Assembly: GCA_016290595.1 (NCBI GenBank)
Contig: JAEEUR010000001.1
Location: 1-60,574, forward strand
Length of the DNA stretch: 60,574 bases
Direction: 5' to 3'
Source: Lachnospiraceae bacterium
GTDB taxonomy: Bacteria; Bacillota; Clostridia; Lachnospirales; Lachnospiraceae
Shown: positions 3,210-38,242 of the stretch, one piece after another
Layout: the number at the start of each line of letters is the position of its first letter
How positions within the stretch are numbered: position 1 is the first letter of the stretch
Position numbers and translations under genes: made by a program
The notes under the pieces: generated by a model
What the model was told of the DNA's origin: nothing
Seen by the model: only the letters and a program-made list of their open reading frames with translations
Database searches by the model: none

Positions 3210-3668
3210 TCATTTCTTTTTATTTTGATCCATTTTTTCAATTTCTTTGACAAAGGTCTTTACGTCCTTGAATTCGCGGTACACCGAGGCGAAGCGCACG
3301 TAGGCCACGTCGTCCGTCGCCTTCAGTTTTTCCATGACCTTCTCGCCGATGACCGTGGACGGGATCTCCCGCTCGTCGCCGGCCGTCAGCTCGTTTTCGA
3401 TCTCGTCCGCCAGCCGCAGGATGGTATCCACGGAGACCGGCCGCTTGTGACAGGCCAGCAGCATGCCCTTTTCGATCTTCGTCCGGTCGAATTCCTCGCG
3501 TACGCCGTCCTTTTTGACCACCATCAGCGGGATCGCCTCCACGCGTTCGTAGGTGGTAAAGCGCCGGTCGCAGACGATGCACTGACGGCGTCTGCGGATC
3601 GCGCCGCCTTCACAGGGGCGGGAATCGATGACCTTGGTATCTTCCGCATTACAGTAGGGACACTTCAT
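3210..3668 (-). CDS. nrdR: transcriptional repressor NrdR (zinc ribbon + ATP-cone)
   Basis: 152 aa. MKCPYCNAEDTKVIDSRPCEGGAIRRRRQCIVCDRRFTTYERVE is the NrdR signature N-terminus. Confidence 0.93.
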   Translation of the reverse strand: MKCPYCNAEDTKVIDSRPCEGGAIRRRRQCIVCDRRFTTYERVEAIPLMVVKKDGVREEFDRTKIEKGMLLACHKRPVSVDTILRLADEIENELTAGDEREIPSTVIGEKVMEKLKATDDVAYVRFASVYREFKDVKTFVKEIEKMDQNKKK

Positions 3669-18785: not shown

Positions 18786-19117
18786 GGCTTTCCGCCCTCC
18801 CGGGAGCCTTCCTGCGGGTCCGTTTCTCCGTCCAGGCGGCGGATCAGGCGGGCGATGGCGTCGTCCTTTTCCTGCAGCCGGTCCGTCAGGGCGTCCAGGC
18901 GGGCTTCTCTTTCGTCCAGCCGTTTTTTCAGGCGGTCGATCTCGGCGTCCTTCTCGTTCAGCCGGACCTTCAGACGGCTCAGCGTTTCCTCCAGGGAGGA
19001 GATCTGGATCTGCCGCTCCGTCAGCTTGTCGCTGATTTCCTGAACGTCCCGGCTCTGCAGGAGCAGAAGCTGGAGCAGATCCTGACGGCGCAGCTTGCGC
19101 AGTTCTTTTTCCGTCAC
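18782..19117 (-). CDS. small cytoplasmic coiled-coil protein
   Basis: 111 aa with no signal peptide. Heptad-rich sequence (LSRLKVRLNEKDAEIDRLKKRLDEREARLDALTDRLQEKDDAIARLIRRL). The start overlaps the adhesin stop and the stop overlaps the lepB start. Confidence 0.5.
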   Translation of the reverse strand: MTEKELRKLRRQDLLQLLLLQSRDVQEISDKLTERQIQISSLEETLSRLKVRLNEKDAEIDRLKKRLDEREARLDALTDRLQEKDDAIARLIRRLDGETDPQEGSREGGKP

Positions 19118-22100: not shown

Positions 22101-25056
22101 AGTTGACGTTGCCCACGGAGGCCGCGTGAACGCCGCCCAGATCCAGGATCAGCTCGCCGTCCACGTACAGCCAGAAGTCGTCGTCTCCGGAGAACTCAAA
22201 GATGATGTCGTGGCCCCAGGCGTCCAGGCCGCTGGCCGTCTGCGTGAAGCTGGCTTCCACCTGCATGCCGAAGAAGTAGTCCGCTTCGTTCTGCGGGATC
22301 AGATGCAGGTTTTCGCCTTTTCTCGGATCCGAATCCGGCAGCTCGTTGCCCAGCACGTCGGTCAGGTTCGTGACCCCGGAATAGCGGCCGGCCACGATCT
22401 GGTTGTACGGCATGAACTGGCCGTGGGTCCTCGTCTTCCTGTCATCCGTGCCGATGCCGGCCAGCTGATCGTAGACCGTAAAAGTGCCGTCCGCATTCAG
22501 GTGCGCAAAGTTCTGGGTGCTGTCGTATTCGAAGTAGCCGCTCTCGTTGTAAATGCTCTGAATAAACAGATGATTGGCAGTCGTCATGCCGCTGAACAGT
22601 TCGGCCAGCGAATGTCCTTCTCTTCCGGTTGCAGCCGTAGAAACGGGATACCCGTCGACCATATCCGTGCTGAGCATTCCGGCAGCGTTGTTGTCACGCC
22701 CGAAAAACTCCGTCTGACCGGAATCTCTGTCTTCGACGATCGGATTGTTGAAGTCCACGATCTTCATGGAGATGCCGTACTCGTTGTTGTCGATCGTCGT
22801 GACCGTCGTCAGCTCGTCGGTCTCGTCGATCGGATTCACGACGGCAAAGTAGAAGTCCTCCGCGGCCGAGAGCGGTCCCGAAGCAAGGCGGCCGTCCGCG
22901 ATCCGCAGGCCGCTGTAGGTGTAATAGTAATCGTCCCAGGCGATGATCGTCGTATAGCTTTCGCCGTAGCGGCGGCCGTTTAAGTTGATACCGATCGTCG
23001 CGTCCGAAAAGACCTGGTTGTCCTTCTGCTGCGGCGCGATGTAGTTCCCGTACTGATGATTCTGCAGCTCGTAGTAATAGTTGACCGAGCCGTCGCTGTT
23101 GTGGTATTCGGTGAAATCCCAGAGAGCCGTATTGACGCGGCTGCCGATCCACTCGATGGTGTCGCCGGCGTCGTGGCAGGGGATCAGGGACCCGTCGTGG
23201 TCCACCGCAAAGAATTCATAGCGTTTCTTCGTGTCGTTCCACAGACGCACGTACAGCACCACCTGCTGTCCGTCGTATACGTTCGCCAGGTCGGAAACGC
23301 TGACCTTCTTCGCGGAGTACAGATGGAAGTCCTCTTCCGTCAGCACGGAGCGCTCCACCAGATTCAGCCAGGCCCGGTCGCCGTTCGCATTATTGCCGCT
23401 TACGGCATTGAAGCCCTTTGCGGCGTTCTGCGGCAGATTCAGGGCATAGGAGCCGACCGTAAAGTGCCATTCTCCTTTGTGCGCCCCGGTACCGGGCGTC
23501 ACCTTGATCACGGAATTCGTTTCGTCCGGCGTATCCTGCAGCGTCACGTTTGCGCCGTTGATGGTGAGATATTGTTTTTGCCCGCCGGCCTGCACCGTTA
23601 TATAATACAGATCATCGCTGACGTTTTCGAAGCTCCACTCGACGATATCGCTGTCCTGGGCCACCAGCAGGATGCCCGTATTGTCCAGCACGTCCGGACG
23701 CATCACAAGATCCTGGCCTGCCAGGCGGGACTGGTTGTTCTCCGTTATGGCGTCCGCCGTTAAAGCGCAGGCCAGCACGTTGTCGTCATGGTAGGCGATG
23801 CCGTAGCTCTTGCCGTCCAGATGATAGGGATCGTCCTCTTTGATCAGGGAGGAGGCGTAGGTCAGCCGGATCCAGACGTTGCCGGTCGTATCGTTATTGG
23901 CCGTCCACAGGCGGATGCCGCCGCCGCCGTTGGAATACTGCAGCCACTTATCCTCTCCGAAAACCTTAAAATAGAACAGGCCGTCTCTCGCCTGGCTCAG
24001 TTCGAAAACGGTCCCGCCGCTTGCGACCAGCCCCACCTGGTTGCCATTCGTATTTTTCAGATAGACTTTTGCATTATCAACGACCGTGGAGATGCGGTAG
24101 CAGTTGTCGCCCTCCGCCGGTTCGAGAAGCCAGCTCGCGGCTTCCGTATAGTCATTCTCGCTTATCTGCAGGCAGCCGCCGCTGATCAGGTTGCTCGTGA
24201 AATAATAGGTTTTGTTCGGCGTCGTATTGATTTTTGTCACGGAAAGGACGAAGGCTTCCGCGGTATTGGCGGCCAGTTCCTCCAGATCCTGCACGCTTCT
24301 GGCGCCGAAAGGTTCCGGCGCGTCCACGATGGCGTACACGGAGAAGGACTCGGTCTCAAAGCTGACCGCTTCCCCGTCCGCTTCCACGTTTTCCACGACG
24401 TCCGGTTCCTCCGCGTCTTCCGCGAAGTGGACGACCTGCATGTTTTCCAGGCCGCCGTCCCGGTCCGCGAGCTCGATCTTCACGTCCACGGGAGCGGACA
24501 GCTCCACTTTTTCGCCGTTTATGTCCAGGATCTTGATGTCAAATAAGCGAATGTATTCCGCCGAGCCGGACGCCAGGCCCAGCGCGGACTCGGTCTTGGC
24601 CACGAATTCGTCATAGACCGCAGCGTTGTCGCGGTCCTTCAGGATCTCGGAGACGGCCAGCTCGGCGCCCAGCGGCACGCCGGCGTCCAGACCGTAGGTC
24701 ACGGAGATCTGATAGCTGTTGCCGTCCGTCGCCTTTAAGGTCTTCTGCAGGAAGCGGCCCAGGATCACGAAGAAGGAGGTGCCCCCGCCGTTTTCTTCCG
24801 GCTTCTCATCCTCTGCCGGCTTTTCGCCTTCACCGGGCTCTGCGCCGTCCGCGGGCTCTCCGCTTTCACCCGGTCCCGCCTCTTCGGCAGGGTCTTCGAC
24901 TTCCGCCGGTTCCCCTTCCTGCTCCTGATTTTCCTGCACGGAAACGGTCCCGGCCGCAGGATCTGCGCCCGGTCCGCCGTTCTCTGCTGCCGCCGCCGGA
25001 AGGGCCAGCTGCAGCAGAAGCAGGAGACATAGGAGGATGGAAAGGGTCTTCTTCAT
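19114..25056 (-). CDS. giant LPXTG-anchored pilus-tip-type adhesin (~1980 aa)
   Basis: I prefer the start MKKTLSILLCLLLLLQLALPAAAA; the ORF extends to a GTG at 25092. It has an acidic linker and a fibro-slime/PA14-like block FEFSGDDDFWLYVDGELILDLGGVH. There are several CnaB-like modules (YTLTEIAAPQNY, YYLTETQAPYPY, YRLVETAPPDGY). The C-terminus is ELPATGGRGTAAYGAAGAALLLGASAMLRIRSGKRKRREAP. Confidence 0.85.
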   Translation of the reverse strand: MKKTLSILLCLLLLLQLALPAAAAENGGPGADPAAGTVSVQENQEQEGEPAEVEDPAEEAGPGESGEPADGAEPGEGEKPAEDEKPEENGGGTSFFVILGRFLQKTLKATDGNSYQISVTYGLDAGVPLGAELAVSEILKDRDNAAVYDEFVAKTESALGLASGSAEYIRLFDIKILDINGEKVELSAPVDVKIELADRDGGLENMQVVHFAEDAEEPDVVENVEADGEAVSFETESFSVYAIVDAPEPFGARSVQDLEELAANTAEAFVLSVTKINTTPNKTYYFTSNLISGGCLQISENDYTEAASWLLEPAEGDNCYRISTVVDNAKVYLKNTNGNQVGLVASGGTVFELSQARDGLFYFKVFGEDKWLQYSNGGGGIRLWTANNDTTGNVWIRLTYASSLIKEDDPYHLDGKSYGIAYHDDNVLACALTADAITENNQSRLAGQDLVMRPDVLDNTGILLVAQDSDIVEWSFENVSDDLYYITVQAGGQKQYLTINGANVTLQDTPDETNSVIKVTPGTGAHKGEWHFTVGSYALNLPQNAAKGFNAVSGNNANGDRAWLNLVERSVLTEEDFHLYSAKKVSVSDLANVYDGQQVVLYVRLWNDTKKRYEFFAVDHDGSLIPCHDAGDTIEWIGSRVNTALWDFTEYHNSDGSVNYYYELQNHQYGNYIAPQQKDNQVFSDATIGINLNGRRYGESYTTIIAWDDYYYTYSGLRIADGRLASGPLSAAEDFYFAVVNPIDETDELTTVTTIDNNEYGISMKIVDFNNPIVEDRDSGQTEFFGRDNNAAGMLSTDMVDGYPVSTAATGREGHSLAELFSGMTTANHLFIQSIYNESGYFEYDSTQNFAHLNADGTFTVYDQLAGIGTDDRKTRTHGQFMPYNQIVAGRYSGVTNLTDVLGNELPDSDPRKGENLHLIPQNEADYFFGMQVEASFTQTASGLDAWGHDIIFEFSGDDDFWLYVDGELILDLGGVHAASVGNVNFRTGEVELIVHDAKGNNVAARTRNTTLIELFRENYVARGLSESEIEAKLDEIFQQNAAGQYVFKDYSNHTMTVFYMERGAGASNLHMRFNLAAVKPGHIILSKKLSGTEEADNSLIEIPYQIRYWTRSDGGEQAHLLEEKTDGVYNAFYAGTTANVKFAESFTPAGGTVAYQNVFFLKPGQSAEIALPEGTTAYTVTECGVNPDVYDEVRANGAVLTGTATGNTVNGTARLDYTTPQDTTQNRSKVEFDNHVKEGAMRTLSVRKKLYDADGVTVLHYPDDNETPFSFRVYLGNENTDPENVPAANMYRYHVKDEDGNYCRWDEENQCFASLGKTVYSDLTEEEKASATFITSMNGSVTKIPADHYIEFRNLIVGTFYKVEERDYEVPKGYTRRITDGYNRMDVDPVISQGTPYSAIMGADESPLIEVRNQRGWGLTLEKVWTDADFMESHDPIYFAIYLRNAQGGPGQLLADSVRRLSGGETSVYFFFEQLEDGTTFSDYIVREVILTVAEGGRIFVNADGVVSGYDSVTPIETGGTLNVGGTPVGGTHNDNYSYKVSYAIGQPTGKNENVRTDTVTNSRPGIQLYKQDMNGNPLAGAVFTLTDAEGNPVAAESFTSGEDGLITIAYLSEGTYTLTEIAAPQNYVVLDQPITITVSAGNEISFSPESDLYMVVIAQDGSNENGMAATVTIKNRGVLLKVVKSDADEAEFTPVAGAHFALYRQVTNLNGELVKDYLPIEGWENLITDAEGVPSATVDGVLRQITMALGAGTYYLTETQAPYPYQLLQYDLCFTLKNDGTVVVNTAGCENWLQTATDPATGTVSYILGIPNSKQKNVGLKKVSAESGESLSGASFALYRAADYDDAAQAPKEGAEAVASGTTDENGLLSLGALLFGEYRLVETAPPDGYQLLSGAVTLTVTGSIITDNVVMAAPYTVTYVQAEDLYRITVPNASGYELPATGGRGTAAYGAAGAALLLGASAMLRIRSGKRKRREAP

Positions 25057-25135
25057 GGTTTGCCTGTCATTCAGGTATATTGACTCGGGCACAGACCCAC
25101 GCCGAAACAGGCAGGTCCTGCCCTAAAACTCGTTT

Positions 25136-27188: not shown

Positions 27189-27812
27189 ATGAAGATGGAA
27201 AAGTTTTGTACAAATTGCGGAAGTCCTATCGAGGAGGGCACTCTTTTCTGCCCGGAATGCGGTCAGAAGCTTGACGTCCAGCCGGCTGCTCCCGCGACAA
27301 ATTTCGTAGCGGCGGCTGCGGCAGCCGTTCCGCCCGTAGAAGCTGCGCCCGCAGCGGCGCCTGCAGAGCCTGCCGCCTCTTACAGCTACGGCTACGGCGC
27401 TCCGGCCCAGCCGAAGAACGAACCGGCTCCCGCGCCCGCACCGGCGCCCGTCCAGCCGGCCGCCGAACCCGCCCCGCAGCCCTTCACGCATGAGAACGAA
27501 TACGGCACCGTCACCAATGAAGCGGCCGTCGGCAGCCCGGTGGTAAAGACCTCCGCCTATTTCTGGCTGTCGCTGCTCTTCGCCATCCCGGTGATCGGCC
27601 TCATCGTGATGATCATCATGGCCTGCGCCGCCAAGAACAAGAACTTAAAGCACTGGACCCGTGCCCTTCTGATCTGGATCCTGGTCGGTCTGATCATAAG
27701 CGTCATTTTAGGCCTGGTCGCCTGGATCATCGGCAAGAACGCCGGGATCGAGCTGACCAACATCGACTTCAACGCGATCTTCCAGAGCCTCTTCGACGCG
27801 CTGGGCGTCTGA
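27189..27812 (+). CDS. zinc-ribbon domain membrane protein (Pro/Ala-rich linker, 3 predicted TM)
   Basis: 207 aa. It reads MKMEKFCTNCGSPIEEGTLFCPECGQKL, then a PAAP-rich region, then hydrophobic segments. AAGGAG lies upstream of the ATG. Confidence 0.6.
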   Translation: MKMEKFCTNCGSPIEEGTLFCPECGQKLDVQPAAPATNFVAAAAAAVPPVEAAPAAAPAEPAASYSYGYGAPAQPKNEPAPAPAPAPVQPAAEPAPQPFTHENEYGTVTNEAAVGSPVVKTSAYFWLSLLFAIPVIGLIVMIIMACAAKNKNLKHWTRALLIWILVGLIISVILGLVAWIIGKNAGIELTNIDFNAIFQSLFDALGV

Positions 27813-27843
27813 TGAACAAGTGATCCCGGCAGTCCCTGCCGGA

Positions 27844-27890
27844 TAAAAACGGCGCCGCTTCCCGAAACGGGAGGCGGCGCTGTTTTATTG
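27844..27890. terminator. bidirectional intrinsic terminator between convergent genes
   Basis: GGCGCCGCTTCCCG-AAA-CGGGAGGCGGCGC forms a 13-bp stem flanked by AAAAAC on the left and TGTTTTATTG on the right. A second small hairpin, CCGGCAG-TCC-CTGCCGG, lies at 27824-27840. Confidence 0.75.
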
Positions 27891-27918
27891 TGTGCTATGT
27901 TTTTTCAGCCGGGTTCGC

Positions 27919-29880
27919 TTATTCCTTCAGGCTTGCCAGGCAGGCCTCGTAGAAATCCAGGCTCTCCGGATTGCCGAGCGCGTCCCGGTTGCCGACCGGC
28001 CGGCCGTTTAAGATGTTCGTGACCGCGCCTTCCACCTTCTTGCCGTTCAAGGTCACGGGGATCTCCGGCGTTTCCAGCGTTACGGCCGGCACATGGCGCG
28101 GCGAAGCCTTGGTGCGGAGGGCGGTTTTGATCTTTTTGACCAGGGCGTCGTCCAGGCTGTAGCCCGGCTGGCACTTGACGAAAAGGATGATCCGCTGGTC
28201 GCCGTGGTAGTTCTGTCCGACGGCCAGGGAATCCTCCACCTCGGGCAGAGAGTTCACGATGTTGTAGATCTCCGCCGTGCCGATACGGACGCCCGAAGGC
28301 TTTAAGACCGAATCGCTCCGGCCGCAGAAGGTGAGACCTCCGGTGTTGCCGTGTACGATCACGTAATCGCCGTGGCGCCAGACGCCCGGATATACCCCGA
28401 AATAGGCGTTAAAGTAGCGCTCGCCGGTCGGATCGTTCCAGAAATACAGCGGCATGGACGGGATGGGCTTTTCGCAGACCAGCTCGCCTTCGCGATCGCG
28501 GATGGGGCGGCCGGCATCGTCGTAGCACTCGACTTTTTCGCCGAGGCCGAAGGCCGCCAGCTCGCCGGAATAGACCGGGATCATCATGTTGCCGATGCCG
28601 AAGCAGCCGTTGATGTCCGTGCCGCCGGCGATGGAATTGAAGTGGTAGTCCTCCTTGATCTCGCGGTAGACGAAATCCCAGCCCTCATCCGAAAGGGCCG
28701 AGCCGGTCTGGGAGATGGCCTTCAGGGCGGACAGATCAGCATGCTCCTTCGGGGAGAAGCCGTGCGCGATCAGCATGTGGATATAGCTGGCGGAAAGGCC
28801 GAAGTCGGTGACCTTCTCTTCTTCCAGGACCTTCCAGATGGTCGCGTCATCCGGGTAGGACGGGTTGCCGTCATAAAGCACCAGCTCCGAGCCGGCGCCG
28901 AGAGCCGCCGCCTGCCAGTTCCACATCATCCAGCTGCAGGTGGTGATATAGAGCAGTTTGCTGCCGGCCTGGATGTTGCAGTGCAGGGTAAGCTCCTTTA
29001 ACTGGTTGGCCAGGATGCCGGCGTGCGACTGGACCATGCATTTTGGCTTGCCGGTGGTGCCGGAGGAAAACATGACGAAAAGAGGATGCGAGGCATCGAC
29101 CTGCTCGTAGCGGAAGCCTTCCGCGGAAGGGGCCAGGTAATCCTCAAACATCACCGCGTTGGGGATATCGGAAACAGCCGGCTCGCCCGCGTAGTGCACC
29201 ACTAAAATTCGCTGTAAGGACGGGATGCGGCCCGCCATTTCCTTCACGTTTTCCAGCGAGGAGAATGTCTTGCCTTTATAACGGTAGCCGTCGGTCGTGA
29301 CGAGGATCTTCGGCGAGGTCTGTCCCAGCCGATCCACCGCCGCGTTCGCCCCGATATCCGTGGCGCAGGAGCACCAGACCGCGCCGACGGCGGCCGCCGC
29401 CAGCATCGCGATGATGGTCTCCGGCAGGTTCGGCAGGTATCCCGCCACCGCGTCGCCGGGCTTTAAGCCCTCCGCGCGGAAGGCCGTCGCCAGCCGTTCC
29501 ACCTGGTCCAGCAGCTCCCCGCGGCTGATCACGCGGCGCATGAAATCCTCCCCGCGGAAGGTGATGGCCGGAGCGGGATCGCCCGCTTTGCAGAAGCGCA
29601 GGATGTTCTCCGCGTAGTTCATCTTCGCGCCGACGAACCATTTCGCGCCCGGGAAGCGGCTTAAGTCGTCCACGACCGTATCGTAGGGACGGGAAGCGAC
29701 GACGTCAAAGTAGTGCCAGAGCGCGTCCCAAAAGGCGGGGATATCTTCCACCGACCACTGATACAGCTCCTTGTATTCATGAAAGTCCTTCCCGCAACGG
29801 CGGTTCACGAAACGCATGAAATCCGCCATGCGGCAGCTGTTTTTCACTTCTTCCGAAGGTTTCCAAAGCAGTTTCTGCAT
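27919..29880 (-). CDS. acetoacetate-CoA ligase (acetoacetyl-CoA synthetase family, AMP-forming)
   Basis: I prefer the start MQKLLWKPSEEVKNSCRMADFMRFVNRRCGKDFHEYKELYQWSVEDIPAFWDALW at 29880, 2 nt after the kamE stop. This gives 653 aa, with the AMP-binding motif FSSGTTGKPK. The first ~180 aa of track ORF 27919-30420 are an out-of-frame read-through over kamE. Confidence 0.8.
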   Translation of the reverse strand: MQKLLWKPSEEVKNSCRMADFMRFVNRRCGKDFHEYKELYQWSVEDIPAFWDALWHYFDVVASRPYDTVVDDLSRFPGAKWFVGAKMNYAENILRFCKAGDPAPAITFRGEDFMRRVISRGELLDQVERLATAFRAEGLKPGDAVAGYLPNLPETIIAMLAAAAVGAVWCSCATDIGANAAVDRLGQTSPKILVTTDGYRYKGKTFSSLENVKEMAGRIPSLQRILVVHYAGEPAVSDIPNAVMFEDYLAPSAEGFRYEQVDASHPLFVMFSSGTTGKPKCMVQSHAGILANQLKELTLHCNIQAGSKLLYITTCSWMMWNWQAAALGAGSELVLYDGNPSYPDDATIWKVLEEEKVTDFGLSASYIHMLIAHGFSPKEHADLSALKAISQTGSALSDEGWDFVYREIKEDYHFNSIAGGTDINGCFGIGNMMIPVYSGELAAFGLGEKVECYDDAGRPIRDREGELVCEKPIPSMPLYFWNDPTGERYFNAYFGVYPGVWRHGDYVIVHGNTGGLTFCGRSDSVLKPSGVRIGTAEIYNIVNSLPEVEDSLAVGQNYHGDQRIILFVKCQPGYSLDDALVKKIKTALRTKASPRHVPAVTLETPEIPVTLNGKKVEGAVTNILNGRPVGNRDALGNPESLDFYEACLASLKE

Positions 29881-29882
29881 AA

Positions 29883-30671
29883 TTATTTCATCCCCCGTCT
29901 TACCATTTCCTTCACGCAGAAGGTCGCGACGTCGTTCGCAAACTTGCCCGGGCCGAAGCCGGCGTCGAAGCCCAGCTCCTTGGCCAGCTCGTGCGTGATG
30001 CGCGCGCCGCCGCAGCACATGACGCACTTGGCGCGCAGCCCCTCCGCCTCCGCCAGCTCGATCAGCTCGGTCAGGTTGATGATGTGGATGTTTTTCTGCG
30101 TGACCGTCTGGCTCACCAGAAGGACGTCCGCGTTGATCTCCTTCGCCTTGGCCAGGAACTCCTCGTTCGGCACCTGCGCGCCCATGTTGAGCGCCTCGAT
30201 CATCTCGTAGCGCTCCAGGCCGTAGTGGCCGGCGAAGCCCTTGCGGTTCATGATCGCGTCGATGCCGACCGTGTGCGCGTCGGTGCCGGTGGAGGCGCCT
30301 AAGACAACGATCTTCCGGCCGATGTGCTCTTTGATGTATTCGTCCACCTCGTCCATCTCCATGGAGACATCCTCGATGGCGTGGATCTGGATCTTCGTGT
30401 AGTCGATAGTGTGCGAGCACGAGCCGTAGACCACGTAGAAGGTGAATTCCTTGTCCAGCGTGCGGGCGTAGGCGACGTTCGGCTCCTCGAGGCCCATCTT
30501 CCGGCTGTAAAGGCGCGCGGCCTCCATCCCCCGGTCGTTGTTCGGGACCGGCAGCGTAAAGGAAAGCTGCACCTTGCCGTCGTTCATGGTGTCGCCGTAG
30601 GGTTTGAGCTTGGTCAGATCCAGGGTCTTGTCAAAGTCCTTGGCAGACATGTCGTAAAGTCCGGAGCTCAT
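29883..30671 (-). CDS. kamE: lysine 5,6-aminomutase beta subunit (B12/PLP-binding)
   Basis: 262 aa. It reads ...GKVQLSFTLPVPNNDRGMEAARLYSRKMGLEEP..., and the Rossmann-like B12 domain reads KIVVLGASTGTDAHTVGIDAI. An ATGA overlap joins it to kamD. Confidence 0.88.
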   Translation of the reverse strand: MSSGLYDMSAKDFDKTLDLTKLKPYGDTMNDGKVQLSFTLPVPNNDRGMEAARLYSRKMGLEEPNVAYARTLDKEFTFYVVYGSCSHTIDYTKIQIHAIEDVSMEMDEVDEYIKEHIGRKIVVLGASTGTDAHTVGIDAIMNRKGFAGHYGLERYEMIEALNMGAQVPNEEFLAKAKEINADVLLVSQTVTQKNIHIINLTELIELAEAEGLRAKCVMCCGGARITHELAKELGFDAGFGPGKFANDVATFCVKEMVRRGMK

Positions 30672-32227
30672 GCGCGCACCTCCTTCCGCATCTCTTCAAT
30701 GAAGGGGTTAAAATAGCGGTCCGACTTTTTCGTCACGCCGTCCAGGCCCTTGCCGCCGTCCAGCGGCCGCTTGATATCCGCGAACACGCCCTTTTCCAGC
30801 GTCGCGAAGAGGCCGATCCGCTCGATCTCGGCGAGTAAGTCCGCCGCCTTCTGCAGCACCTCAGCCGCGCGGGTCCGGATGATGCCGCCCTCCTTGAACT
30901 CGATGTCGTTTCCGAGATCCGCCATCGTTCGGAAGATGTACTGCGCGTTCTCGATGGCCAGCGCGCGGTCCGACATGAATGGCGTATGGATGGCCTCCGT
31001 CATCATGCCCAGCAGGTGGATCTTCTGGTTCGTCAGGATGGTCACCATATTGAAGAGGGCGTCCTGAACGTGCCCGCGGAAGATATTTCCCGTCATGAAC
31101 TTTGTAGGAGGCATGTATTTCAGTGGCGCTTTGGGAAATATTTCCCGGGCCATCTGAGCCTGCGCCAGCTCGTAGAGGAAGGCGTTCGGCAGGTCGGGAT
31201 CCATCTCGAAGGCGTGGCCGAGGCCCATCTGCTCTTCCGGCAGGCCCGCCTGCACGGCGAACTGCTCGTTTAAGAACTGGCTGGCCAGCACCGTGTGCGC
31301 CTCTTCGTAGGCGTCGGCGGTGGTGAGGTAATTGTCCTCGCCGGTATTGATGATGACCCCCGCGAAACTGTTGATGACGCGGGAGAAATACTGGTCGATG
31401 ATGGTCCGCTGCATGTTGATGTCGCGGAAAAGGATGCCGTAGAGCGCATCGTTGAGCATCACGTCCAGGCGCTCCAGGGCGCCCATGGCCGCGATCTCCG
31501 GCATGCACAGCCCCGAGCAGTAGTTGCAGAGGCGGATGTAGCGGTGCTGCTCCTCTCCCACTTCGTCCAGGGCGGCGCGCATTAAGCGGAAGTTCTCCTG
31601 CGTCGCGTAGGTGCCGCCGAAGCCCTCGGTGGTCGCGCCGAAAGGCACGAAGTCCAGCAGGCTCTGGCCGGTGGTCCGGATCACGGCGATGACGTCCGCG
31701 CCCTGCTTGGCCGCCGCCTTGGCCTGCGTGATATCCTCATAAATGTTGCCGGTCGCAACGATCAGATAGATGTACGGTCCCTTCTTGTCGCCGAAGCAGT
31801 CCAGGTACTCGTTCCTTTTTGCGACGTTCGAACGGATGCGCGAAAGCGTCGCTTCCACCACGGGGGAAATGGCCGCGCGGATCTCCTCCTCCGGATGCAT
31901 GGGCAGGGCGGCAAGGTCGATCTCGCCTCTGTCGATGCCTTCCGCGATCTTTTGCGGGGAAAGGCCCGTCTCCGCCATGGCGTTGCCCAGCCGGAGCGCC
32001 GCGCCGTCCGCCAGAAGGTCGCGCGCCGTCAGGTGGTCCACCACCACGTTCGGCATGGGGACCTCGACCTCGTTCACGCCGTCGATGCCGAGCAGGCGGC
32101 AGACCGTCCGCTCCACCGCGACCGTCGTGTGCCGGTCGATGAAGCGCTGCGTATCCTCCGCCACGTGGGCGGCCGAGGTCCGCGCCTGATCCACCAGCTC
32201 CTGATTTAAGCCGATCTTGCTCTCCAT
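30668..32227 (-). CDS. kamD: lysine 5,6-aminomutase alpha subunit
   Basis: 519 aa, MESKIGLNQELVDQARTSAAHVAEDTQRFIDRHTTVAVERTVCRLLGIDGV.... It is a TIM-barrel aminomutase large subunit sitting between kamA and kamE. Confidence 0.88.
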   Translation of the reverse strand: MESKIGLNQELVDQARTSAAHVAEDTQRFIDRHTTVAVERTVCRLLGIDGVNEVEVPMPNVVVDHLTARDLLADGAALRLGNAMAETGLSPQKIAEGIDRGEIDLAALPMHPEEEIRAAISPVVEATLSRIRSNVAKRNEYLDCFGDKKGPYIYLIVATGNIYEDITQAKAAAKQGADVIAVIRTTGQSLLDFVPFGATTEGFGGTYATQENFRLMRAALDEVGEEQHRYIRLCNYCSGLCMPEIAAMGALERLDVMLNDALYGILFRDINMQRTIIDQYFSRVINSFAGVIINTGEDNYLTTADAYEEAHTVLASQFLNEQFAVQAGLPEEQMGLGHAFEMDPDLPNAFLYELAQAQMAREIFPKAPLKYMPPTKFMTGNIFRGHVQDALFNMVTILTNQKIHLLGMMTEAIHTPFMSDRALAIENAQYIFRTMADLGNDIEFKEGGIIRTRAAEVLQKAADLLAEIERIGLFATLEKGVFADIKRPLDGGKGLDGVTKKSDRYFNPFIEEMRKEVRA

Positions 32228-32230
32228 GGA

Positions 32231-33490
32231 TCACTCTCCCTTTTTCTTGCAGCTGCAGCGCTTGGTGCGCGCCAGGTCCTTCGGCTCCAGGCTTAAGGCC
32301 TGTCCCTGTTCCAGTCCGGCCACGCCGACCAGCCTGCCCTCGCGTTCCTTCCGGCAGTACTCGCACTGGCAGGTCTCCTTATAATTCTGCGGCTCGGTGT
32401 AGGTCGTGATGACGCCCTCGAAGTTGCGCAGGATCACGCGGTGCGGCGTCTGCGAGATCAGATAGTCCGGCATGACCGGGATCTTCCCGCCGCCGCCGGG
32501 CGCATCCACCACGAAGGTCGGCACGCAGAAGCCGCTCGTGTGGCCGCGCAGCGCCTCGATGATCTCGATGCCCTTGCCGACCGGCGTGCGGAAGTGCTCC
32601 AGGCCCATGGAGAGGTCGCACTGGTAAATGTAGTACGGCCGCACGCGGATCTTCACCAGCTCGTGCATCAGCTTCTTCATGGTATAGACGCAGTCGTTGA
32701 CGCCGGCCAAAAGCACGCTTTGGTTGCCCAGCGGGATGCCCGCGTCGGCCAGCATCGCGCAGGCGCGCGCGGAGGCCTCGGTGATCTCCTTCGGGTGGTT
32801 GAAGTGCGTGTTCAGCCAGATCGGGTGGTACTTGCGCAGCATCGCGCAGAGCTCGGGCGTGATGCGCTGCGGCATGACCACCGGCGTGCGGGAGCCGATG
32901 CGGACGATCTCCACGTGCGGGATGGCGCGGACGCGGGCGATCACGTATTCCAGGCGCTCGTCGCTCATGACCAGCGGGTCGCCGCCGGAGATCAGGACGT
33001 CGCGGACCTCCGGATGGTTCTTGATGTATTCGATGCAGCCGTCGATCTGGTCCACGGGCACCGCCCGGTCCGTCTGGCCGGCGAAGCGGCGGCGGGTGCA
33101 GTGGCGGCAGTACATGGAGCACTGGTCCGTGACCAGCAGCAGTACGCGGTCCGGATAGCGGTGGGTCAGGCCCTTGACCGGGGAGTCCGTGTCCTCGTGC
33201 AGGGGATCCAGCAGGTCCGCCTCCGACTGATGCAGCTCGGCGGCGGTCGGGATCGCCTGGCGGCGGATCGGATCGTGCGGGTCGCTTAAGTCGATCAGGG
33301 ACAGGTAGTAGGGCGTGATGGCCATGCGCAGCACGCCGAGGCATTTGCGGATGCCTTCCTCCTCTTCTTCCGTGATCTCGATATGCTTTTTCAGATCTTC
33401 CACCGTCTCGATGCGGTTGCGGATCTGCCATTTCCAGTCGTTCCAGAGTTCTTCGGGTACGTCGGCAAACAGGCCGTTGCGGGTGATCAT
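32231..33490 (-). CDS. kamA: lysine 2,3-aminomutase (radical SAM)
   Basis: I prefer the start MITRNGLFADVPEELWNDWKWQIRNRI at 33490. CSMYCRHCTRRR is the radical-SAM cluster. GGDPL and the C-terminal Zn-site cysteines (CQCEYC) are present. Confidence 0.92.
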   Translation of the reverse strand: MITRNGLFADVPEELWNDWKWQIRNRIETVEDLKKHIEITEEEEEGIRKCLGVLRMAITPYYLSLIDLSDPHDPIRRQAIPTAAELHQSEADLLDPLHEDTDSPVKGLTHRYPDRVLLLVTDQCSMYCRHCTRRRFAGQTDRAVPVDQIDGCIEYIKNHPEVRDVLISGGDPLVMSDERLEYVIARVRAIPHVEIVRIGSRTPVVMPQRITPELCAMLRKYHPIWLNTHFNHPKEITEASARACAMLADAGIPLGNQSVLLAGVNDCVYTMKKLMHELVKIRVRPYYIYQCDLSMGLEHFRTPVGKGIEIIEALRGHTSGFCVPTFVVDAPGGGGKIPVMPDYLISQTPHRVILRNFEGVITTYTEPQNYKETCQCEYCRKEREGRLVGVAGLEQGQALSLEPKDLARTKRCSCKKKGE

Positions 33491-33731
33491 ACGATTGATT
33501 TTCCTTTCCGCCTCGCCGCCGGTACGAAAACTTTTCTCAGGACGATTGCTCTGCCTCGCCGCCGGCACGAAGTTTTTCGAAAACGCGTGCCCCTTTTCAA
33601 GGGCCCCGCTAGCTCTCACTAGTCGCTTCGCTAAATCGTTCGAAAAACTTGTCCAGCCGGCTCGGCGAACCACGTTACGTTCGCAATGTGCTCGAAAAGT
33701 ATTGTCCGGCTCGCTCGGCTTTCAATGTTTT
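33491..33731 (-). repeat. structured intercistronic spacer with four ~30-nt repeat copies (two direct, two inverted)
   Basis: On the plus strand, copies at 33510-33538 and 33553-33584 read GCCTCGCCGCCGG(T/C)ACGAA..TTTT. Copies at 33639-33668 and 33690-33719 are their imperfect reverse complements (..TCGAAAA..TTGTCC..GGCTCG..CGGC). Confidence 0.7.
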
Positions 33732-34775
33732 CTATACGTATTTCTTGTCAAATAAATCTCTGATCTTTTTGTTCTCTCGGAGGACGTTCAGCGTGATCTC
33801 GGCGTGGTTTTTGGCGTACCCGTTGCCGACGATCATGGTGATGTCCTTGCCGACGCCTTCGGCGCCCAGGGCCGCGCGGGTGAAGCTCGTCGCCATGGAG
33901 AAGAAATAGACCGTGCCGCCTTCTTTCACCGGCAGGATGGCGCTCATCTCGCAGGCTTCGACGTTCACGCAGCTGATGGAAAGGTCATATTCCTTCCCGC
34001 CGTTGGCCTCCAGCGCCGCTTCGAGCACCGCGACGGGCTCGGTCGCGGAGGCGACGATCACCTTGTGATAGACGCCCAGTTCCATCAGGCCCGAGACTTG
34101 CTTCGGATTGCGGACCACGCCGACCACGTTGCCGTTCGGACCGACCTTCTTCATGGCTTCCCAGGCGCAGAGCACGCCGCTCTTGCCGTTCGCGCCCAGG
34201 ATCAGCACGCTGTCGCCCTCCTTCGGCAGGCGTCTTGCCTGCGCGGGCGCACCGGCCACGTCCAGGGCCGCCAGAGCCAGCGCTTCGGACATATCGTCCG
34301 GGAGCTTGGCGTACAGGCCGCTCTCAAAGAGCACCGCCTGCCCGATGATATCCACGCGGTCGATCTCCTTGTGAATGGCCAGGATCTTATCAATTTTCAG
34401 CGGCGTCAGGGACAGGCTGACCAGGGACGCGATCTTATCGCCGACTTTGAGGTCGCGGTCCTTTAAATCGTCGCCGATGTAGGCGACCCGGCCGATGAAC
34501 ATGCCGCCGGAGCCCGTCACCGGGTTCTGCTGCTTGCCGCGCTCAGCCACGATCCCGAGGATCATCTCGCCGATCTTCTTCTCGTCCCCGCCGCAGACCT
34601 CGCTGATCTGCGTGAAGGACGCCGAATCGATATTCAGGGAGGTCACGTCGCAGATGATCTCGTTCGAATAATACTTCGTCATGTCGTTGTCGACCTTCCA
34701 GGCCGCCTGCGTCAGAACGCCCTTCGGTTCGATCACGCGGTGAGTACCGTACTTATTGCCTTTTAACTGTTCCAT
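33732..34775 (-). CDS. kdd: L-erythro-3,5-diaminohexanoate dehydrogenase
   Basis: 347 aa, MEQLKGNKYGTHRVIEPKGVLTQAAWKVDNDM...NIDSASFTQI.... It has an NAD(P) Rossmann motif, ILGANGKSG. Its position in the lysine fermentation cluster fits the call. Confidence 0.85.
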   Translation of the reverse strand: MEQLKGNKYGTHRVIEPKGVLTQAAWKVDNDMTKYYSNEIICDVTSLNIDSASFTQISEVCGGDEKKIGEMILGIVAERGKQQNPVTGSGGMFIGRVAYIGDDLKDRDLKVGDKIASLVSLSLTPLKIDKILAIHKEIDRVDIIGQAVLFESGLYAKLPDDMSEALALAALDVAGAPAQARRLPKEGDSVLILGANGKSGVLCAWEAMKKVGPNGNVVGVVRNPKQVSGLMELGVYHKVIVASATEPVAVLEAALEANGGKEYDLSISCVNVEACEMSAILPVKEGGTVYFFSMATSFTRAALGAEGVGKDITMIVGNGYAKNHAEITLNVLRENKKIRDLFDKKYV

Positions 34776-34789
34776 ATTTATCTCCTCCC

Positions 34790-35608
34790 CTATACCAGTC
34801 CTAAAATCTTTCTCGCTTCCGCCGGCGTCGCGATTTCGCGGCCGAGCTCGCGGGCCAGCCGCACCACCTTTTCCACCAGCTCCCCGTTGCTCTTCGCGAG
34901 CACGCCCCGGGAAATATACAGATTGTCCTCAAAGCCCACGCGGACGTTGCCGCCCATCACGATGCCGGCCGCCGCCATCGTAAACGCGTGCCTCCCGATG
35001 CCTGTCACCGTCCAGGTGCTGCCACCAGGGATCTGCCGCACCATCCAGTCCAGATTGCCCACCGTCGCCGGCGTGCAGCCGGGAACGCCCAGCACGAAAT
35101 TGAACTGCATCGGGGCGCCGGGCACCTCGCCCTTTTTCGCCATGGTGAGGACCGTTTCCAAATGCCCCATCTCGAAGCATTCGTACTCCGGCTTGATGCG
35201 GTTTTCCAGCATGCGCTTCCCGAAGGCGCGCATCATGGGCATCGAATTATCGAAGATATCGTCGCCGAAATTGCAGGTGCCGCAGTCCAGGGTCGCCATC
35301 TCCGGGAAGAGCTCCGTCGGCTGCAGGCGCTCCTCGGCGCTCATGCCGACCGCCCCGCCGGTGGACGGGATCAGAATCACGTCCGGGATCGCCGCCTTGA
35401 TCGCGTCGATGCAGACCCTGAAGCGCTCGCGGCTCTGCGTCGGCGTGCCGTCGTCCTCGCGTACGTGCAGGTGCACGATGGCCGCGCCGGCTTCGTACGC
35501 GCTCTTCGCCTCGCGGACGATCTCCTCCACGGTGTAGGGCACCGCCGGATTCTGCGCCTTGGTCACTTCCGCCCCGCAGATCGCCGCCGTAATGATCAGT
35601 TTTTCCAT
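34790..35608 (-). CDS. kce: 3-keto-5-aminohexanoate cleavage enzyme (BKACE/DUF849 family)
   Basis: 272 aa. MEKLIITAAICGAEVTKAQNPAVPYTVEEIVREAKSAYEAGAAIVHLHVRE... is typical of the BKACE family. Confidence 0.88.
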   Translation of the reverse strand: MEKLIITAAICGAEVTKAQNPAVPYTVEEIVREAKSAYEAGAAIVHLHVREDDGTPTQSRERFRVCIDAIKAAIPDVILIPSTGGAVGMSAEERLQPTELFPEMATLDCGTCNFGDDIFDNSMPMMRAFGKRMLENRIKPEYECFEMGHLETVLTMAKKGEVPGAPMQFNFVLGVPGCTPATVGNLDWMVRQIPGGSTWTVTGIGRHAFTMAAAGIVMGGNVRVGFEDNLYISRGVLAKSNGELVEKVVRLARELGREIATPAEARKILGLV

Positions 35609-35672
35609 TATACTTCTCCTTCCTGCCTTCCCCTTGAGGGGAAGGTGGCGCGAAGCGCCGGATGAGGTGTCC

Positions 35673-36059
35673 TTATCTCGCGATGCGCTGCTTTTCCTTA
35701 GGCACCACGCAGGTCCCGCTGGCGCGGCAGACCACGATCGGCTCCGCCAGCACGTCGCAGGCGCTCTCGTTGATATCCGGACGCGGGACGATCACCTTGC
35801 GCGCCTCGAATTTCATCTTCCGGGAGGTGTTGCCGACCTTCACGATCTCGCCCTCCGCCTCGATATAATCACCGGCAAAGACCGGCGCTAAGAACTCCAC
35901 GTTGTCGTAGGCGCAGAACAGGCCCTCGTCGCCGTCGTGCATGATCAGAAGCTCCGTCGCGACGTCGCCGAACAGGTGCAGCATGTGCGCCCCGTCCACC
36001 AGATTGCCGCCGTAGTGCGCGTCCTCCGCTCCCATGCGGACCCGAATGAGTGATTTCAT
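35673..36059 (-). CDS. kal: 3-aminobutyryl-CoA ammonia-lyase (hot-dog fold)
   Basis: I prefer the start [37 protein letters not shown] at 36059, with GGGAGGG upstream. This gives 128 aa. It is the first gene of the lysine operon. Confidence 0.8.
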
Positions 36060-36077
36060 TGTTTTCCCTCCCGTTTC

Positions 36078-36123
36078 AAAAAAATAAGCGCCGTCAAAGG
36101 ATTTCATTCCTTCAATAGCGCTT
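36078..36123 (-). terminator. intrinsic terminator forming the riboswitch expression platform
   Basis: The minus strand has AAGCGCTATTGAAGGA-atgaaa-TCCTTTGACGGCGCTT, a 16-position stem with 1 mismatch, followed by ATTTTTTTG. It lies 19 nt before the kal RBS. Confidence 0.8.
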
Positions 36124-36132
36124 CATGCGTGG

Positions 36133-36280
36133 CATGACAGCAGCCGGCGCTGGGCACGGACTGCCAGGAAACGGTTCGGCGGACCGCTCCCTTCGGCGAA
36201 ACGACCCTTTCTCTTTCTCCGGAACTGCCCATCCCACGGGAAAAAGAGTACCCTTCGTTTCGCGCCTCTATCTCACTGCT
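36133..36280 (-). ncRNA. lysine riboswitch (L-box) aptamer
   Basis: The minus strand reads GAGATAGAGGCGCGAAACGAAGGGTAC...GGAGAAAGAGAAAGGGTCGTTTCGCCGAAGGGAGCGG...CCTGGCAGTCCGTGC...GCTGCTGTCATG. This matches the conserved L-box blocks as I recall them from B. subtilis lysC: ATAGAGGTGCGAA, AGAGTA, GGAGAAAGA, GAAAGGG..GTCGCCGAAG, CTGG..CGTGC, CTGTCA. Confidence 0.85.
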
Positions 36281-36324
36281 TATGGACACGTGAAAAAAGA
36301 AGCTCACGTGTTTCTTCTGTTCCT

Positions 36325-36353
36325 ATCATAAAAAAAACGCCCCGGAATTGCAA
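36325..36353 (-). promoter_or_regulatory. candidate sigma-A promoter of the lysine fermentation operon
   Basis: The minus strand reads TTGCAA-17 nt-TATGAT, about 45 nt upstream of the aptamer. It is embedded in the terminator hairpin of the upstream gene. Confidence 0.55.
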
Positions 36354-36362
36354 GCGTTTTTT
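36330..36362 (-). terminator. intrinsic terminator after the C39-like gene
   Basis: The minus strand has AAAACGC-ttgcaattccggg-GCGTTTT followed by a T-run (TTTTTTTTAT). Confidence 0.55.
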
Positions 36363-36397
36363 GAAAGAATTCTGTCCGTCCCGCGGGTACGGCTCCT

Positions 36398-37000
36398 TCA
36401 CTTTTCTTTTCTCCAGAACAGATAGAAGCGTTTGTCCGCGCCTTCTGTGTCTTCCATCAGCGTTTTCAGATCGCAGATCACAAACTTCCCCTTCACTTTC
36501 ACTTTGTCCCGGCGCCCTTCCTCGTCGTACTTTCCTTCTTTGATGGCCGGATCCAGGACCGCGAAGCGCCCGTCCCGCTGTTCCGCAATGACGACGACGT
36601 AGTGGGCGTTATGCGTGAATACGCCGATATAGCCCTCTCTGTCGCCGGCGGATTCCGCGACGGCGCAGCCGCCGGTCCGAAGACAGAAAAGAAGCCGCTC
36701 GGGATCGTCCGTCATCTCCAGATCCAGGCCGAATCTTTCCGCCAGGGCCGGAGCAAAGACCGTATAATCGGTCCCGATCCTGAGGTTGGCCTCGGAAGCG
36801 TAGGACAGCCGTATCGCTTCCTCCAGACTGAGCTCCGTGTTGACCAGCAGGCGGTCGACGACGATGATCGCGGAGCACAGGCCGCAGGCAGAGGTCGCGA
36901 CGGTCGTCTTTTTCCCCTTCTCGCGCGACGCTTCGTCCTCCATCTCCTGCCGGGTGATATAAGGCACTTCGGGATAGTCCAGCTGATTGACGAATTTCAT
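36398..37000 (-). CDS. papain-like (peptidase C39-like) cysteine peptidase-fold protein
   Basis: 200 aa with no signal peptide. The candidate nucleophile context is TSACGLCSAIIVV, preceded by Gln (NQLDY). The candidate His is in NAHYVVVIAE. Confidence 0.35.
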   Translation of the reverse strand: MKFVNQLDYPEVPYITRQEMEDEASREKGKKTTVATSACGLCSAIIVVDRLLVNTELSLEEAIRLSYASEANLRIGTDYTVFAPALAERFGLDLEMTDDPERLLFCLRTGGCAVAESAGDREGYIGVFTHNAHYVVVIAEQRDGRFAVLDPAIKEGKYDEEGRRDKVKVKGKFVICDLKTLMEDTEGADKRFYLFWRKEK

Positions 37001-37015
37001 GATGCGCGCTCCTTT

Positions 37016-38242
37016 TTAATTCTGCTGCGCAGGCGCCGGCGTTTGCCGGTCCGCGTTCTCAGCGGGGGAAAGATAGGCCAGCGCCGAAGCGGTCAGCAGC
37101 CTGACCCCCACCTGCAGCGCTTCTTCATCGGGAACGAAGCGGCTGTTGTGGACGCCCTGGCACGGCTCGCCGGGCCTTCCGCAGCCCAGATGATAGTAAA
37201 GCCCGGGGACTTTTTCCGAAAAGCAGGAGAAATCCTCGCCGCCCATTTCGGGGAATTCCTCGATGTGGACGTGCTCGCTGCCGAGCACCCCGGAGGCCGC
37301 GCGGACGACCAGCTCGCAGAGTGCCGGATCGTTCACCACGGGAGAATAGCCCCGGATGAAGGAGAACGAGTACCCGGCTCCCATCCCCTCGGTCACCCCT
37401 TTTACGATCTTTTCCATCCGTTCAGCAACGGCGTCCCGGACCTCGGGCTTCAGATTCCGGCAGGTCCCTTCCAGCGTACACGTTTCCGCCACGATGTTGC
37501 GGCGTGTGCCGGCGTTGACCTTGCCGATAGTCAGCACCGAATTGTCAAAGGGGCTGACGTTCCGGGAGATGATGCTCTGCAGCGCCGTGATCACGTGAGC
37601 TCCGATCAGGACGGCGTCCACGCCCTGGTCGGGTTCCGAAGCATGGCTGCCTTTCCCGTGTACCGTGATGACGAAGCCGTCGGACGCGGCCGTCATGGGA
37701 CCCGGCCGCACGCCGATGTCGCCGGTCGGATCGAAGGGGTTCACGTGCTGCCCGATGACCGCGTCGACTTTCGGGTCCTCCAGTACGCCGTCGGCGATCA
37801 TCCGCCTCGCCCCGCTGGCGGCGGCGACTTCTTCCGAGGGCTGGAAGATCAGTTTGACGGAGCCGCTGAAGCAGTCGCGCAGCTTAAGAAGCACGCGGGC
37901 GGCGCCGAGCAGCATGGCCGTGTGGGCATCGTGGCCGCAGGCATGCATCACCCCCGGATTTTGGGAAGCAAAGGGCAGTCCGGTGCACTCCTGTATCGGG
38001 AGCGCGTCAAAATCCGCCCGCAGCCCGAGGCATTTGCCCGGCCCGGCTCCCCGGATCAGCGCGGTGACGCCGTATCCGCCCACGTTTTCGCGGGGTTCCA
38101 GCCCCATTTTCCGCAGTTCGGTGGCAATATAGGCTGCCGTTTCTTTTTCCTCGCCGGACAGTTCCGGATGCGCATGCAGCCAATGCCAGTGCGCCCGGAT
38201 CTCTTCCCGGAAGGAATCCGCTAAAGCATCGATCCGATCCAT
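37016..38242 (-). CDS. M20D family amidohydrolase (N-acyl-amino-acid/hippurate hydrolase-like)
   Basis: 408 aa. It reads ...HWLHAHPELSGEEKETAAYIATELRKMGLEP...MHACGHDAHTAMLLGAA.... Confidence 0.85.
   Translation of the reverse strand: MDRIDALADSFREEIRAHWHWLHAHPELSGEEKETAAYIATELRKMGLEPRENVGGYGVTALIRGAGPGKCLGLRADFDALPIQECTGLPFASQNPGVMHACGHDAHTAMLLGAARVLLKLRDCFSGSVKLIFQPSEEVAAASGARRMIADGVLEDPKVDAVIGQHVNPFDPTGDIGVRPGPMTAASDGFVITVHGKGSHASEPDQGVDAVLIGAHVITALQSIISRNVSPFDNSVLTIGKVNAGTRRNIVAETCTLEGTCRNLKPEVRDAVAERMEKIVKGVTEGMGAGYSFSFIRGYSPVVNDPALCELVVRAASGVLGSEHVHIEEFPEMGGEDFSCFSEKVPGLYYHLGCGRPGEPCQGVHNSRFVPDEEALQVGVRLLTASALAYLSPAENADRQTPAPAQQN

Follow-up and report, generated by a model that had tools for sequence, protein, structure and literature searches.

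A lysine riboswitch whose terminator overlaps its closing helix, a predicted ON switch of a lysine-fermentation operon in an uncultured member of the Clostridia

Most described lysine riboswitches are OFF switches, so what does such an element do in front of an operon that consumes lysine? The question is raised by the leader of a gene cluster in a contig of a Lachnospiraceae bacterium, of which we analysed 60,574 nt (the whole stretch is called the window hereafter). An initial annotation, made from the sequence, had proposed a lysine riboswitch and a terminator upstream of a lysine-degrading operon, possibly an ON switch, and had left the direction of switching open. All the sequence blocks that it quoted could be located; they lie on the minus strand, a detail that it did not give. 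The covariance-model search that it suggested as a check produced a clear match to the Rfam family RF00168 (Lysine), with 77.9 bits against a gathering score of 30, an E-value of 1.1e-18, and coverage of model positions 1-182 of 182. This is the sole Rfam family above threshold in the 60.5-kb window. The alignment contains the five-helix P1-P5 fold with the blocks AGAGGNGC, GAAAGG, GCCGAAG, CUGG, CUGUCA and GNGCUA, and the strongly conserved junction blocks of the family (AGAGGCGC, GAAAGGG, CGCCGAAG, CUGG, CUGUCA and GCUA) are intact. Four pairs of the alignment are flagged as non-standard, and the AGUA (sarcin-ricin) block of P2 has a one-base gap. Helices P2 to P5 are also predicted from free-energy folding alone, and they formed in every fold of the nascent transcript. 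The aptamer is on the same strand as kal, 48 nt upstream of it, and six further lysine-fermentation genes follow kal. Judged by these features, the element is a genuine lysine-class riboswitch, and it presumably binds lysine. A permissive Rfam rescan of positions 27500..37200 (E <= 1) for a second riboswitch or another known RNA in the long spacers of the operon returned only chance-level matches.

Table 1. Features of the leader and of the operon, in window coordinates.
Feature	Coordinates	Strand	Sequence or evidence
Promoter-like site	36353..36325	minus	TTGCAA-17-TATGAT; -35 TTGCAA 36353..36348; -10 TATGAT 36330..36325
5' hairpin	36311..36286	minus	ACACGUGA/UCACGUGU, 8 pairs, 10-nt loop; between promoter and aptamer
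Lysine riboswitch aptamer	36278..36108	minus	Rfam RF00168 (Lysine), full model
P1 5' strand	36272..36268	minus	GAUAG; covariance-model alignment
P5	36137..36123	minus	covariance-model alignment
J5/1	36122..36119	minus	AGCG; covariance-model alignment
P1 3' strand	36118..36113	minus	CUAUUG; covariance-model alignment
Intrinsic terminator hairpin (predicted)	36123..36086	minus	AAGCGCUAUUGAAGGA-AUGAAA-UCCUUUGACGGCGCUU; ViennaRNA
Terminator 5' arm	36123..36108	minus	
Terminator loop	36107..36102	minus	
Terminator 3' arm	36101..36086	minus	
Terminator U tract	36085..36078	minus	AUUUUUUU; A+U7, 7 U within 9 nt past the stem
Shine-Dalgarno	36072..36066	minus	GGGAGGG
kal start codon	36059..36057	minus	ATG
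Operon, seven genes	27919..36059	minus	kal-kce-kdd-kamA-kamD-kamE and acetoacetate-CoA ligase
kal, 3-aminobutyryl-CoA ammonia lyase	36059..35673	minus	Kal, 200 bits (cut-off 160)
kce, 3-keto-5-aminohexanoate cleavage enzyme	35608..34790	minus	Kce, 431 bits (cut-off 382)
kdd, 3,5-diaminohexanoate dehydrogenase	34775..33732	minus	Kdd, 261 bits (cut-off 200)
kamA, lysine 2,3-aminomutase	about 33490..32231	minus	627 bits (cut-off 525)
kamD, lysine 5,6-aminomutase alpha	32227..30668	minus	921 bits (cut-off 600)
kamE, lysine 5,6-aminomutase beta	30671..29883	minus	397 bits (cut-off 280)
Acetoacetate-CoA ligase	29871..27919	minus	778 bits (cut-off 521)

We typed the downstream genes by NCBIfam equivalog cut-offs, which all seven pass (Table 1). 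The cluster, named as lysine-degrading by the initial annotation, is, from its protein matches, the route of lysine fermentation to acetate and butyrate. Shared strand and spacing suggest that the seven genes form one transcript, and since the next gene is on the opposite strand, the transcription unit probably ends after the acetoacetate-CoA ligase. This last gene (27919..29871) encodes an AMP-forming enzyme, through which the acetoacetate from Kce would be activated at the cost of ATP. Lysine-fermentation clusters usually encode a butyryl-CoA:acetoacetate CoA-transferase (AtoAD) instead.

Two spacers of the operon have features of their own. The kal-kce spacer carries a 47-nt double hairpin (35625..35671, minus strand; GGCGC-UUCG-GCGCC and CCUUCCCC-UCAA-GGGGAAGG), whose word depth is 150-1630 in four gut or rumen runs (three labelled as RNA, one of unknown type), against about 80 or less for the flanking genes. 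Many contigs carry it, between flanks that are unrelated; the window has a single copy, and the 80 kal loci introduced below have none. It appears to be a short repeat dispersed in this bacterial group. The kdd-kamA spacer (33491..33731, minus strand) is unusually long, at 241 nt, and matches no Rfam family. Within it are direct repeats of 22 nt (91%, spaced by 43 nt) and of 18 nt (83%, spaced by 53 nt), and a perfect inverted repeat of 12 nt (AAGTTTTTCGAA/TTCGAAAAACTT). Elsewhere in the window, a 1992-aa ORF (19114..25092, minus strand) has, by eye, a signal-like N-terminal segment and a C-terminal LPATG sorting-type motif with a hydrophobic tail, and presumably encodes a sortase-anchored surface protein.

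Upstream of the aptamer, the promoter candidate of the initial annotation is where it was said to be: TTGCAA-17-TATGAT has 9 of 12 consensus matches and is the sole such site in 35600..36700, for a chance expectation of 0.4. This consensus match would place the transcription start near 36318, and the relatives described below have TTGACA-17-TATAAT-like sites at the same position relative to the aptamer. Between promoter and aptamer stands a 5' hairpin of about -11 kcal/mol by folding, retained with altered arms in the closest relatives (GCACAUGG/UCAUGUGU in L001, CGCGUGA/UUACGUG in L002, GCGUGA/UCACGC in L008), and a hairpin is found here in other relatives too. It is probably a 5'-terminal stabilising stem-loop. 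Each of its arms includes the palindrome CACGTG, and the hairpin could be either an mRNA-stabilising 5' stem-loop or a DNA-level operator just past the start site. Further upstream, AAAAAACGC...GCGTTTTTTTT (36331..36362, minus strand) forms a hairpin followed by a T-run just past the end (36398) of a 200-aa gene. This hairpin and T-run overlap the -35 region of the promoter of the riboswitch, and L001 and L002 show the same arrangement. It is probably the terminator of the upstream gene, sharing sequence with the riboswitch promoter. The 200-aa ORF itself (36398..37000, minus strand), directly upstream of that promoter, has no NCBIfam or Pfam match, and is preceded by a gene for an M20 amidohydrolase or carboxypeptidase CpsA-like protein (37016..38242).

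The arrangement that bears on the direction of switching lies at the other end of the aptamer. The predicted terminator hairpin has 15 pairs, one A-C mismatch and several G-U pairs, with a free energy of -17.8 to -18.9 kcal/mol (ViennaRNA). A simple terminator scan did not flag this site (36123..36086), because of the internal mismatch and of the GC-poor five apical pairs. The initial annotation had put the hairpin and its U run 19 nt before the ribosome-binding site of kal; by our measurement, 5 nt separate the end of the U run from the Shine-Dalgarno sequence, and 18 nt separate it from the kal ATG. The 5' arm of the hairpin consists of the last base of P5, all of J5/1, the whole P1 3' strand and AAGGA. 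Nucleotides 36123..36113 are thus shared between P5, J5/1 and the P1 3' strand on one side and the terminator on the other, with no third helix between them. Since the P1 3' strand is inside the terminator 5' arm, P1 and the terminator are mutually exclusive, without an intermediate antiterminator. The middle of the terminator, which faces the bases taken from P1, is weakened by U-G, A-C and G-U oppositions, and this should help a ligand-held P1 to resist strand invasion.

Folding the leader with and without a P1 constraint, as the initial annotation had advised, gives a consistent default. In transcripts of growing length, P2 to P5 are present at every length and the terminator appears once its 3' arm is out (by 36084). 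The minimum-energy structure of the full leader holds the terminator, not P1. When the 5' hairpin is kept, the terminator state is at -98.4 kcal/mol, compared with -91.5 kcal/mol when P1 is forced and -88.8 kcal/mol when J5/1 is locked in addition. By nearest-neighbour energies the terminator is favoured by 7-14 kcal/mol, and P1 has just five standard pairs. The terminator being more stable than the P1 state, the predicted default of the unliganded leader is termination, and read-through would need extra energy from the ligand. With so large a gap, switching would rest on timing and on the energy supplied by the ligand and by tertiary structure.

Because the terminator uses the P1 3' strand and there is no antiterminator, holding P1 can only prevent termination. 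We therefore consider it highly likely, from sequence and folding models, that the element is a transcriptional lysine-ON riboswitch, with an effect in vivo in the direction of induction. The possible ON switch of the initial annotation thus gains its direction from the P1 3' strand in the terminator 5' arm. The ON direction is also physiologically apt, because every downstream gene encodes an enzyme of lysine fermentation. The opposite reading is a conventional OFF switch like that of Bacillus subtilis lysC, by which lysine would favour termination and the catabolic operon would be closed by the very substrate that it degrades. It has in its favour that OFF switches prevail among described lysine riboswitches and that its layout is the one seen in the control leaders of biosynthesis and transport genes (n=25, including four weak irregular overlap calls and one leader without terminator-like site). 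Yet, it requires an antiterminator that P1 destroys, and here P1 can only weaken a terminator that itself uses the P1 3' strand; no other partner for either terminator arm was found in free or constrained folds. Repression of a catabolic operon by its substrate would also be physiologically senseless, and we regard this reading as barely credible. Seven RNA-type runs contained 5-22% of the sampled words, in sparse undirected contigs, and covered the leader at 0-5x.

The lysine-ON reading suggests the following course of events. Transcription from near 36318 would produce the 5' hairpin, then the lysine aptamer, and then 38 nt able to form the terminator, whose 5' arm is the RNA that closes the aptamer (last P5 base, J5/1 and P1 3' strand). 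Without lysine, the short 5-pair P1 would be displaced, the terminator would form, and RNA polymerase would stop in the U tract, which lies 18 nt ahead of kal. With lysine, P1 and the junction would be held, leaving possible only the five apical pairs of the terminator, which do not adjoin the U tract. The polymerase would then read through into kal-kce-kdd-kamA-kamDE and the acetoacetate-CoA ligase gene, such that lysine is fermented only when abundant. Lysine probably must bind within roughly 35-45 nt of synthesis, from the emergence of the P1 3' strand to the U tract, which would amount to kinetic control.

Several other pairings in the leader were considered. The initial annotation had seen by eye two competing ones. 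In the first, between GCGCTAT of the terminator 5' arm and ATAG..GCGC at the aptamer 5' end, the CUAU/AUAG part stands and is essentially P1, and the GCGC part falls, as P2 is the helix that contains the GCGC of the aptamer 5' end. We rejected the second, between AGCGCCG and CGGCGCT, which needs P4 to be melted and is absent from all constrained folds. When P1 is forced, an outer helix between AUAAGC (36283..36278) and GCUUAU (36089..36084) appears, which would hide the base of the terminator; by eye, it has no convincing counterpart in L001, L002 and L008. In the minimum-energy fold of the window, an upstream 'anti-P1' helix pairs GCUUCU..UUUCAC, from the loop and 3' arm of the 5' hairpin, with GUGAGA.AGAGGC, and blocks P1. 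We rejected it as a conserved part of the switch: the duplex energies of 36 relatives are no better than those with shuffled upstream sequence, with z near 0 for most relatives and -2.0 for the window, where the helix may be incidental.

The terminator could also be a leaky attenuator or a structural element, if the lysine-binding aptamer acts mainly on translation or mRNA stability, through access to the Shine-Dalgarno sequence or by nucleases. The Shine-Dalgarno sequence is indeed just 5 nt past the U tract, the distance from aptamer to start codon is very short (36-39 nt) in L002, L003 and L014, and E. coli lysC is known to combine control of translation and of decay. We nevertheless judge this unlikely: GGGAGGG is not predicted to pair stably with the leader, and the hairpin is built like a complete intrinsic terminator, with a GC-rich base followed by seven U, an anatomy kept in all relatives, even where kal begins 100-260 nt further on.

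How general is the overlap between terminator and P1? A scan for the Kal protein, with one genome per species, gave 80 kal loci. Directly upstream of kal, on the same strand, 36 of them have an RF00168 aptamer (57-86 bits). These 36 loci are labelled Clostridia or Bacillota and include none of the Bacteroidales loci; the groups represented are Oscillospiraceae, Lachnospiraceae, Intestinimonas, Flavonifractor, Christensenella and Clostridium cadaveris, the last being a cultured carrier of the kal-type leader (strain JCM 1392, locus L072, 85.7 bits). In all 37 leaders, window included, the first hairpin past the aptamer takes 4-6 of the 6 bases of the P1 3' strand into its 5' arm. These hairpins have a median stability of -21.4 kcal/mol, and the 9 nt past them include 4-8 U, with 5 or more in 34 of the 37 leaders. 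The terminator stem is kept in the ten closest relatives, with compensatory double changes at 4 of 13 pairs, in the apical part. One locus without lysine riboswitch, L030 of a Sedimentibacter MAG, has a c-di-GMP-I riboswitch immediately downstream of kal (3483..3572, 74.5 bits).

As controls, we scanned metagenome contigs for TAGAGGYGC-N50-80-CGCCGAAG and located the aptamers by means of an HMM of the 37 kal-type sequences. Two of the 27 usable aptamers precede kal or kce (L142 and L100), both with an overlapping terminator. The other 25, which served as controls, precede dapA, asd, lysC, lysA, NhaC-type carriers or solute- or amino-acid-binding proteins (20 typed with Pfam). In 20 of the 25, the first terminator-like hairpin begins 9-131 nt (mostly 19-66 nt) past the P1 3' strand; in one other, there is no terminator-like site. 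Apparent overlaps were called in the remaining four; the calls are weak and irregular, and each of these leaders has a terminator-like site 47-51 nt downstream. Conversely, the terminator overlaps P1 in the window and in all 38 related kal- or kce-linked leaders, which share ancestry and so do not count as 38 independent events. The apical parts of the hairpins are unrelated in sequence across these 38 leaders. Judged by their layout, lysine riboswitches are thus of two cleanly separated designs, which track the physiology of the downstream genes: the terminator overlaps P1 in front of catabolic genes, and lies downstream of P1 in front of genes for biosynthesis or uptake. The kal-linked ON design would then be widespread in those Clostridia of gut, rumen and digesters that make butyrate and acetate from lysine.

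The same HMM raises the possibility that the kal-linked lineage senses another ligand through a lysine-like fold, for example beta-lysine or another pathway intermediate. The kal-type aptamers are a tight group: the control lysine aptamers score only 18-44 bits with it, against 115 bits for L100 and 54 bits for L142, which are of kal/kce type, and variant specificities are known in other riboswitch classes. We think this very unlikely, given that all the strongly conserved RF00168 junction blocks are intact in the window, that the J5/1 variants of kal-type leaders occur in control aptamers too, and that lysine is the substrate of the pathway.

Some relatives go beyond the layout of the window. 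A second hairpin with a U tail (T2), 11-49 nt past the first (T1), is present in 17 of the 39 kal/kce-type leaders, namely in 16 of the 36 relatives from the genome collection and in L100 (L011, L015, L018, L020, L022, L027, L028, L029, L031, L034, L035, L039, L044, L064, L065, L078 and L100). It lies between the end of the aptamer and kal, roughly at positions 2790-3000 of most loci, and has -15 to -35 kcal/mol in 16 of the 17; the T2 of L011 is a longer stem seen in one analysis only. The strand that closes the aptamer (P5 3' strand, J5/1 and P1 3' strand) recurs as a second copy, roughly xAUG-RNG-YGCUAUY, on the 5' side of T2, and the bases just upstream of this copy have diverged in most loci. 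The copied P5 3' strand is outside the T2 stem and still pairs, by eye, with the P5 5' strand of its own locus in 17 of 17: it is CAUG, UAUG, UGUG or CGUG where the latter is CAUG, and GAUG where the latter is CAUC or CGUC. No second copy is present in the window, where the best match reaches 7 of 12 bases.

Two routes could connect the two hairpins. In a hand-over, copy 2 would replace copy 1 as closing strand and T1 would form inside an enlarged P5 loop. In a relay, the freed 3' arm of T1 would pair with copy 2, the 5' arm of T2. The conservation of the P5 copy favours the hand-over, and since T1 is more stable than T2 in 12 of the 16 loci with a scored T2, the exchange would be driven. We propose tentatively, at a little short of an even chance, that in this kal-specific ON lineage a single aptamer governs two terminators in series in 17 of the 39 leaders, with the window as the minimal, one-terminator form. 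By either route, one aptamer would impose two successive lysine checks, allowing a tighter and more switch-like control without a second aptamer. A 2022 review of tandem riboswitch architectures counts 14 double lysine riboswitches and has no single-aptamer, two-terminator class; these relatives, if functional, would add a layout missing from it.

The lysine-ON design in front of kal or kce has been predicted since 2003, and the element of the window is another member of it. For lysine ON riboswitches, Barrick & Breaker 2007 (PMC2258182) cite Rodionov et al. 2003. Mukherjee et al. 2017 (PMC5584792) list such elements in front of kal/kce, in C. sticklandii, F. nucleatum and Thermoanaerobacter, and describe them as positively regulated. 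The initial annotation had pointed to a prediction of activators by the Gelfand/Rodionov group in front of kamA-type operons; these two citing papers bear out the prediction, and the 2017 survey corrects the position, from kamA to kal/kce. A text search of the literature found no termination assay or reporter test of a natural lysine-ON riboswitch, which is no proof of absence, and published uses of the phrase 'lysine-ON riboswitch' appear to concern engineered switches. A natural part of this kind would be useful for metabolic engineering, for which the versions published under that term are, by the same search, engineered only. Clostridium cadaveris JCM 1392 is a cultured carrier in which the design can be tested.

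In working principle, the closest likeness is to the pbuE (ydhL) adenine switch of Bacillus subtilis, an ON switch under kinetic control, where the 5' arm of the terminator shares bases with the 3' side of the aptamer and a ligand-held P1 blocks the terminator. Its aptamer fold and ligand are unrelated, and its target is an efflux pump instead of a catabolic operon. B. subtilis lysC, by contrast, is an OFF switch, where an antiterminator that includes the P1 3' strand competes with a terminator further downstream. This L box (Sudarsan 2003, Grundy 2003) shares with our element the RF00168 family and control by an intrinsic terminator in the leader, whereas the leader of the window has no antiterminator and its terminator itself overlaps P1. 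The glycine riboswitch of gcvT is likewise an amino-acid ON switch that induces the breakdown of its own excess ligand, cited in PMC2258182 together with adenine and lysine ON switches; it has another aptamer, usually two in tandem. The engineered lysine-ON riboswitch of Zhou and Zeng 2015 also has a lysine aptamer and raises expression with lysine, but it is synthetic, selected from a library based on the E. coli lysC element, and that of the window is natural. Finally, the predicted ON riboswitches of kal/kce in Clostridium sticklandii, Fusobacterium nucleatum and Thermoanaerobacter resemble the element of the window in aptamer class, in position before kal, the first gene of the cluster, and in the proposed logic, by which ligand binding buries part of the terminator stem. 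The window differs from them by its source, an uncultured member of the Clostridia of roughly 60% GC from rumen or digester communities, and by its longer operon of seven genes, which includes kdd, kamA, kamDE and the acetoacetate-CoA ligase gene.
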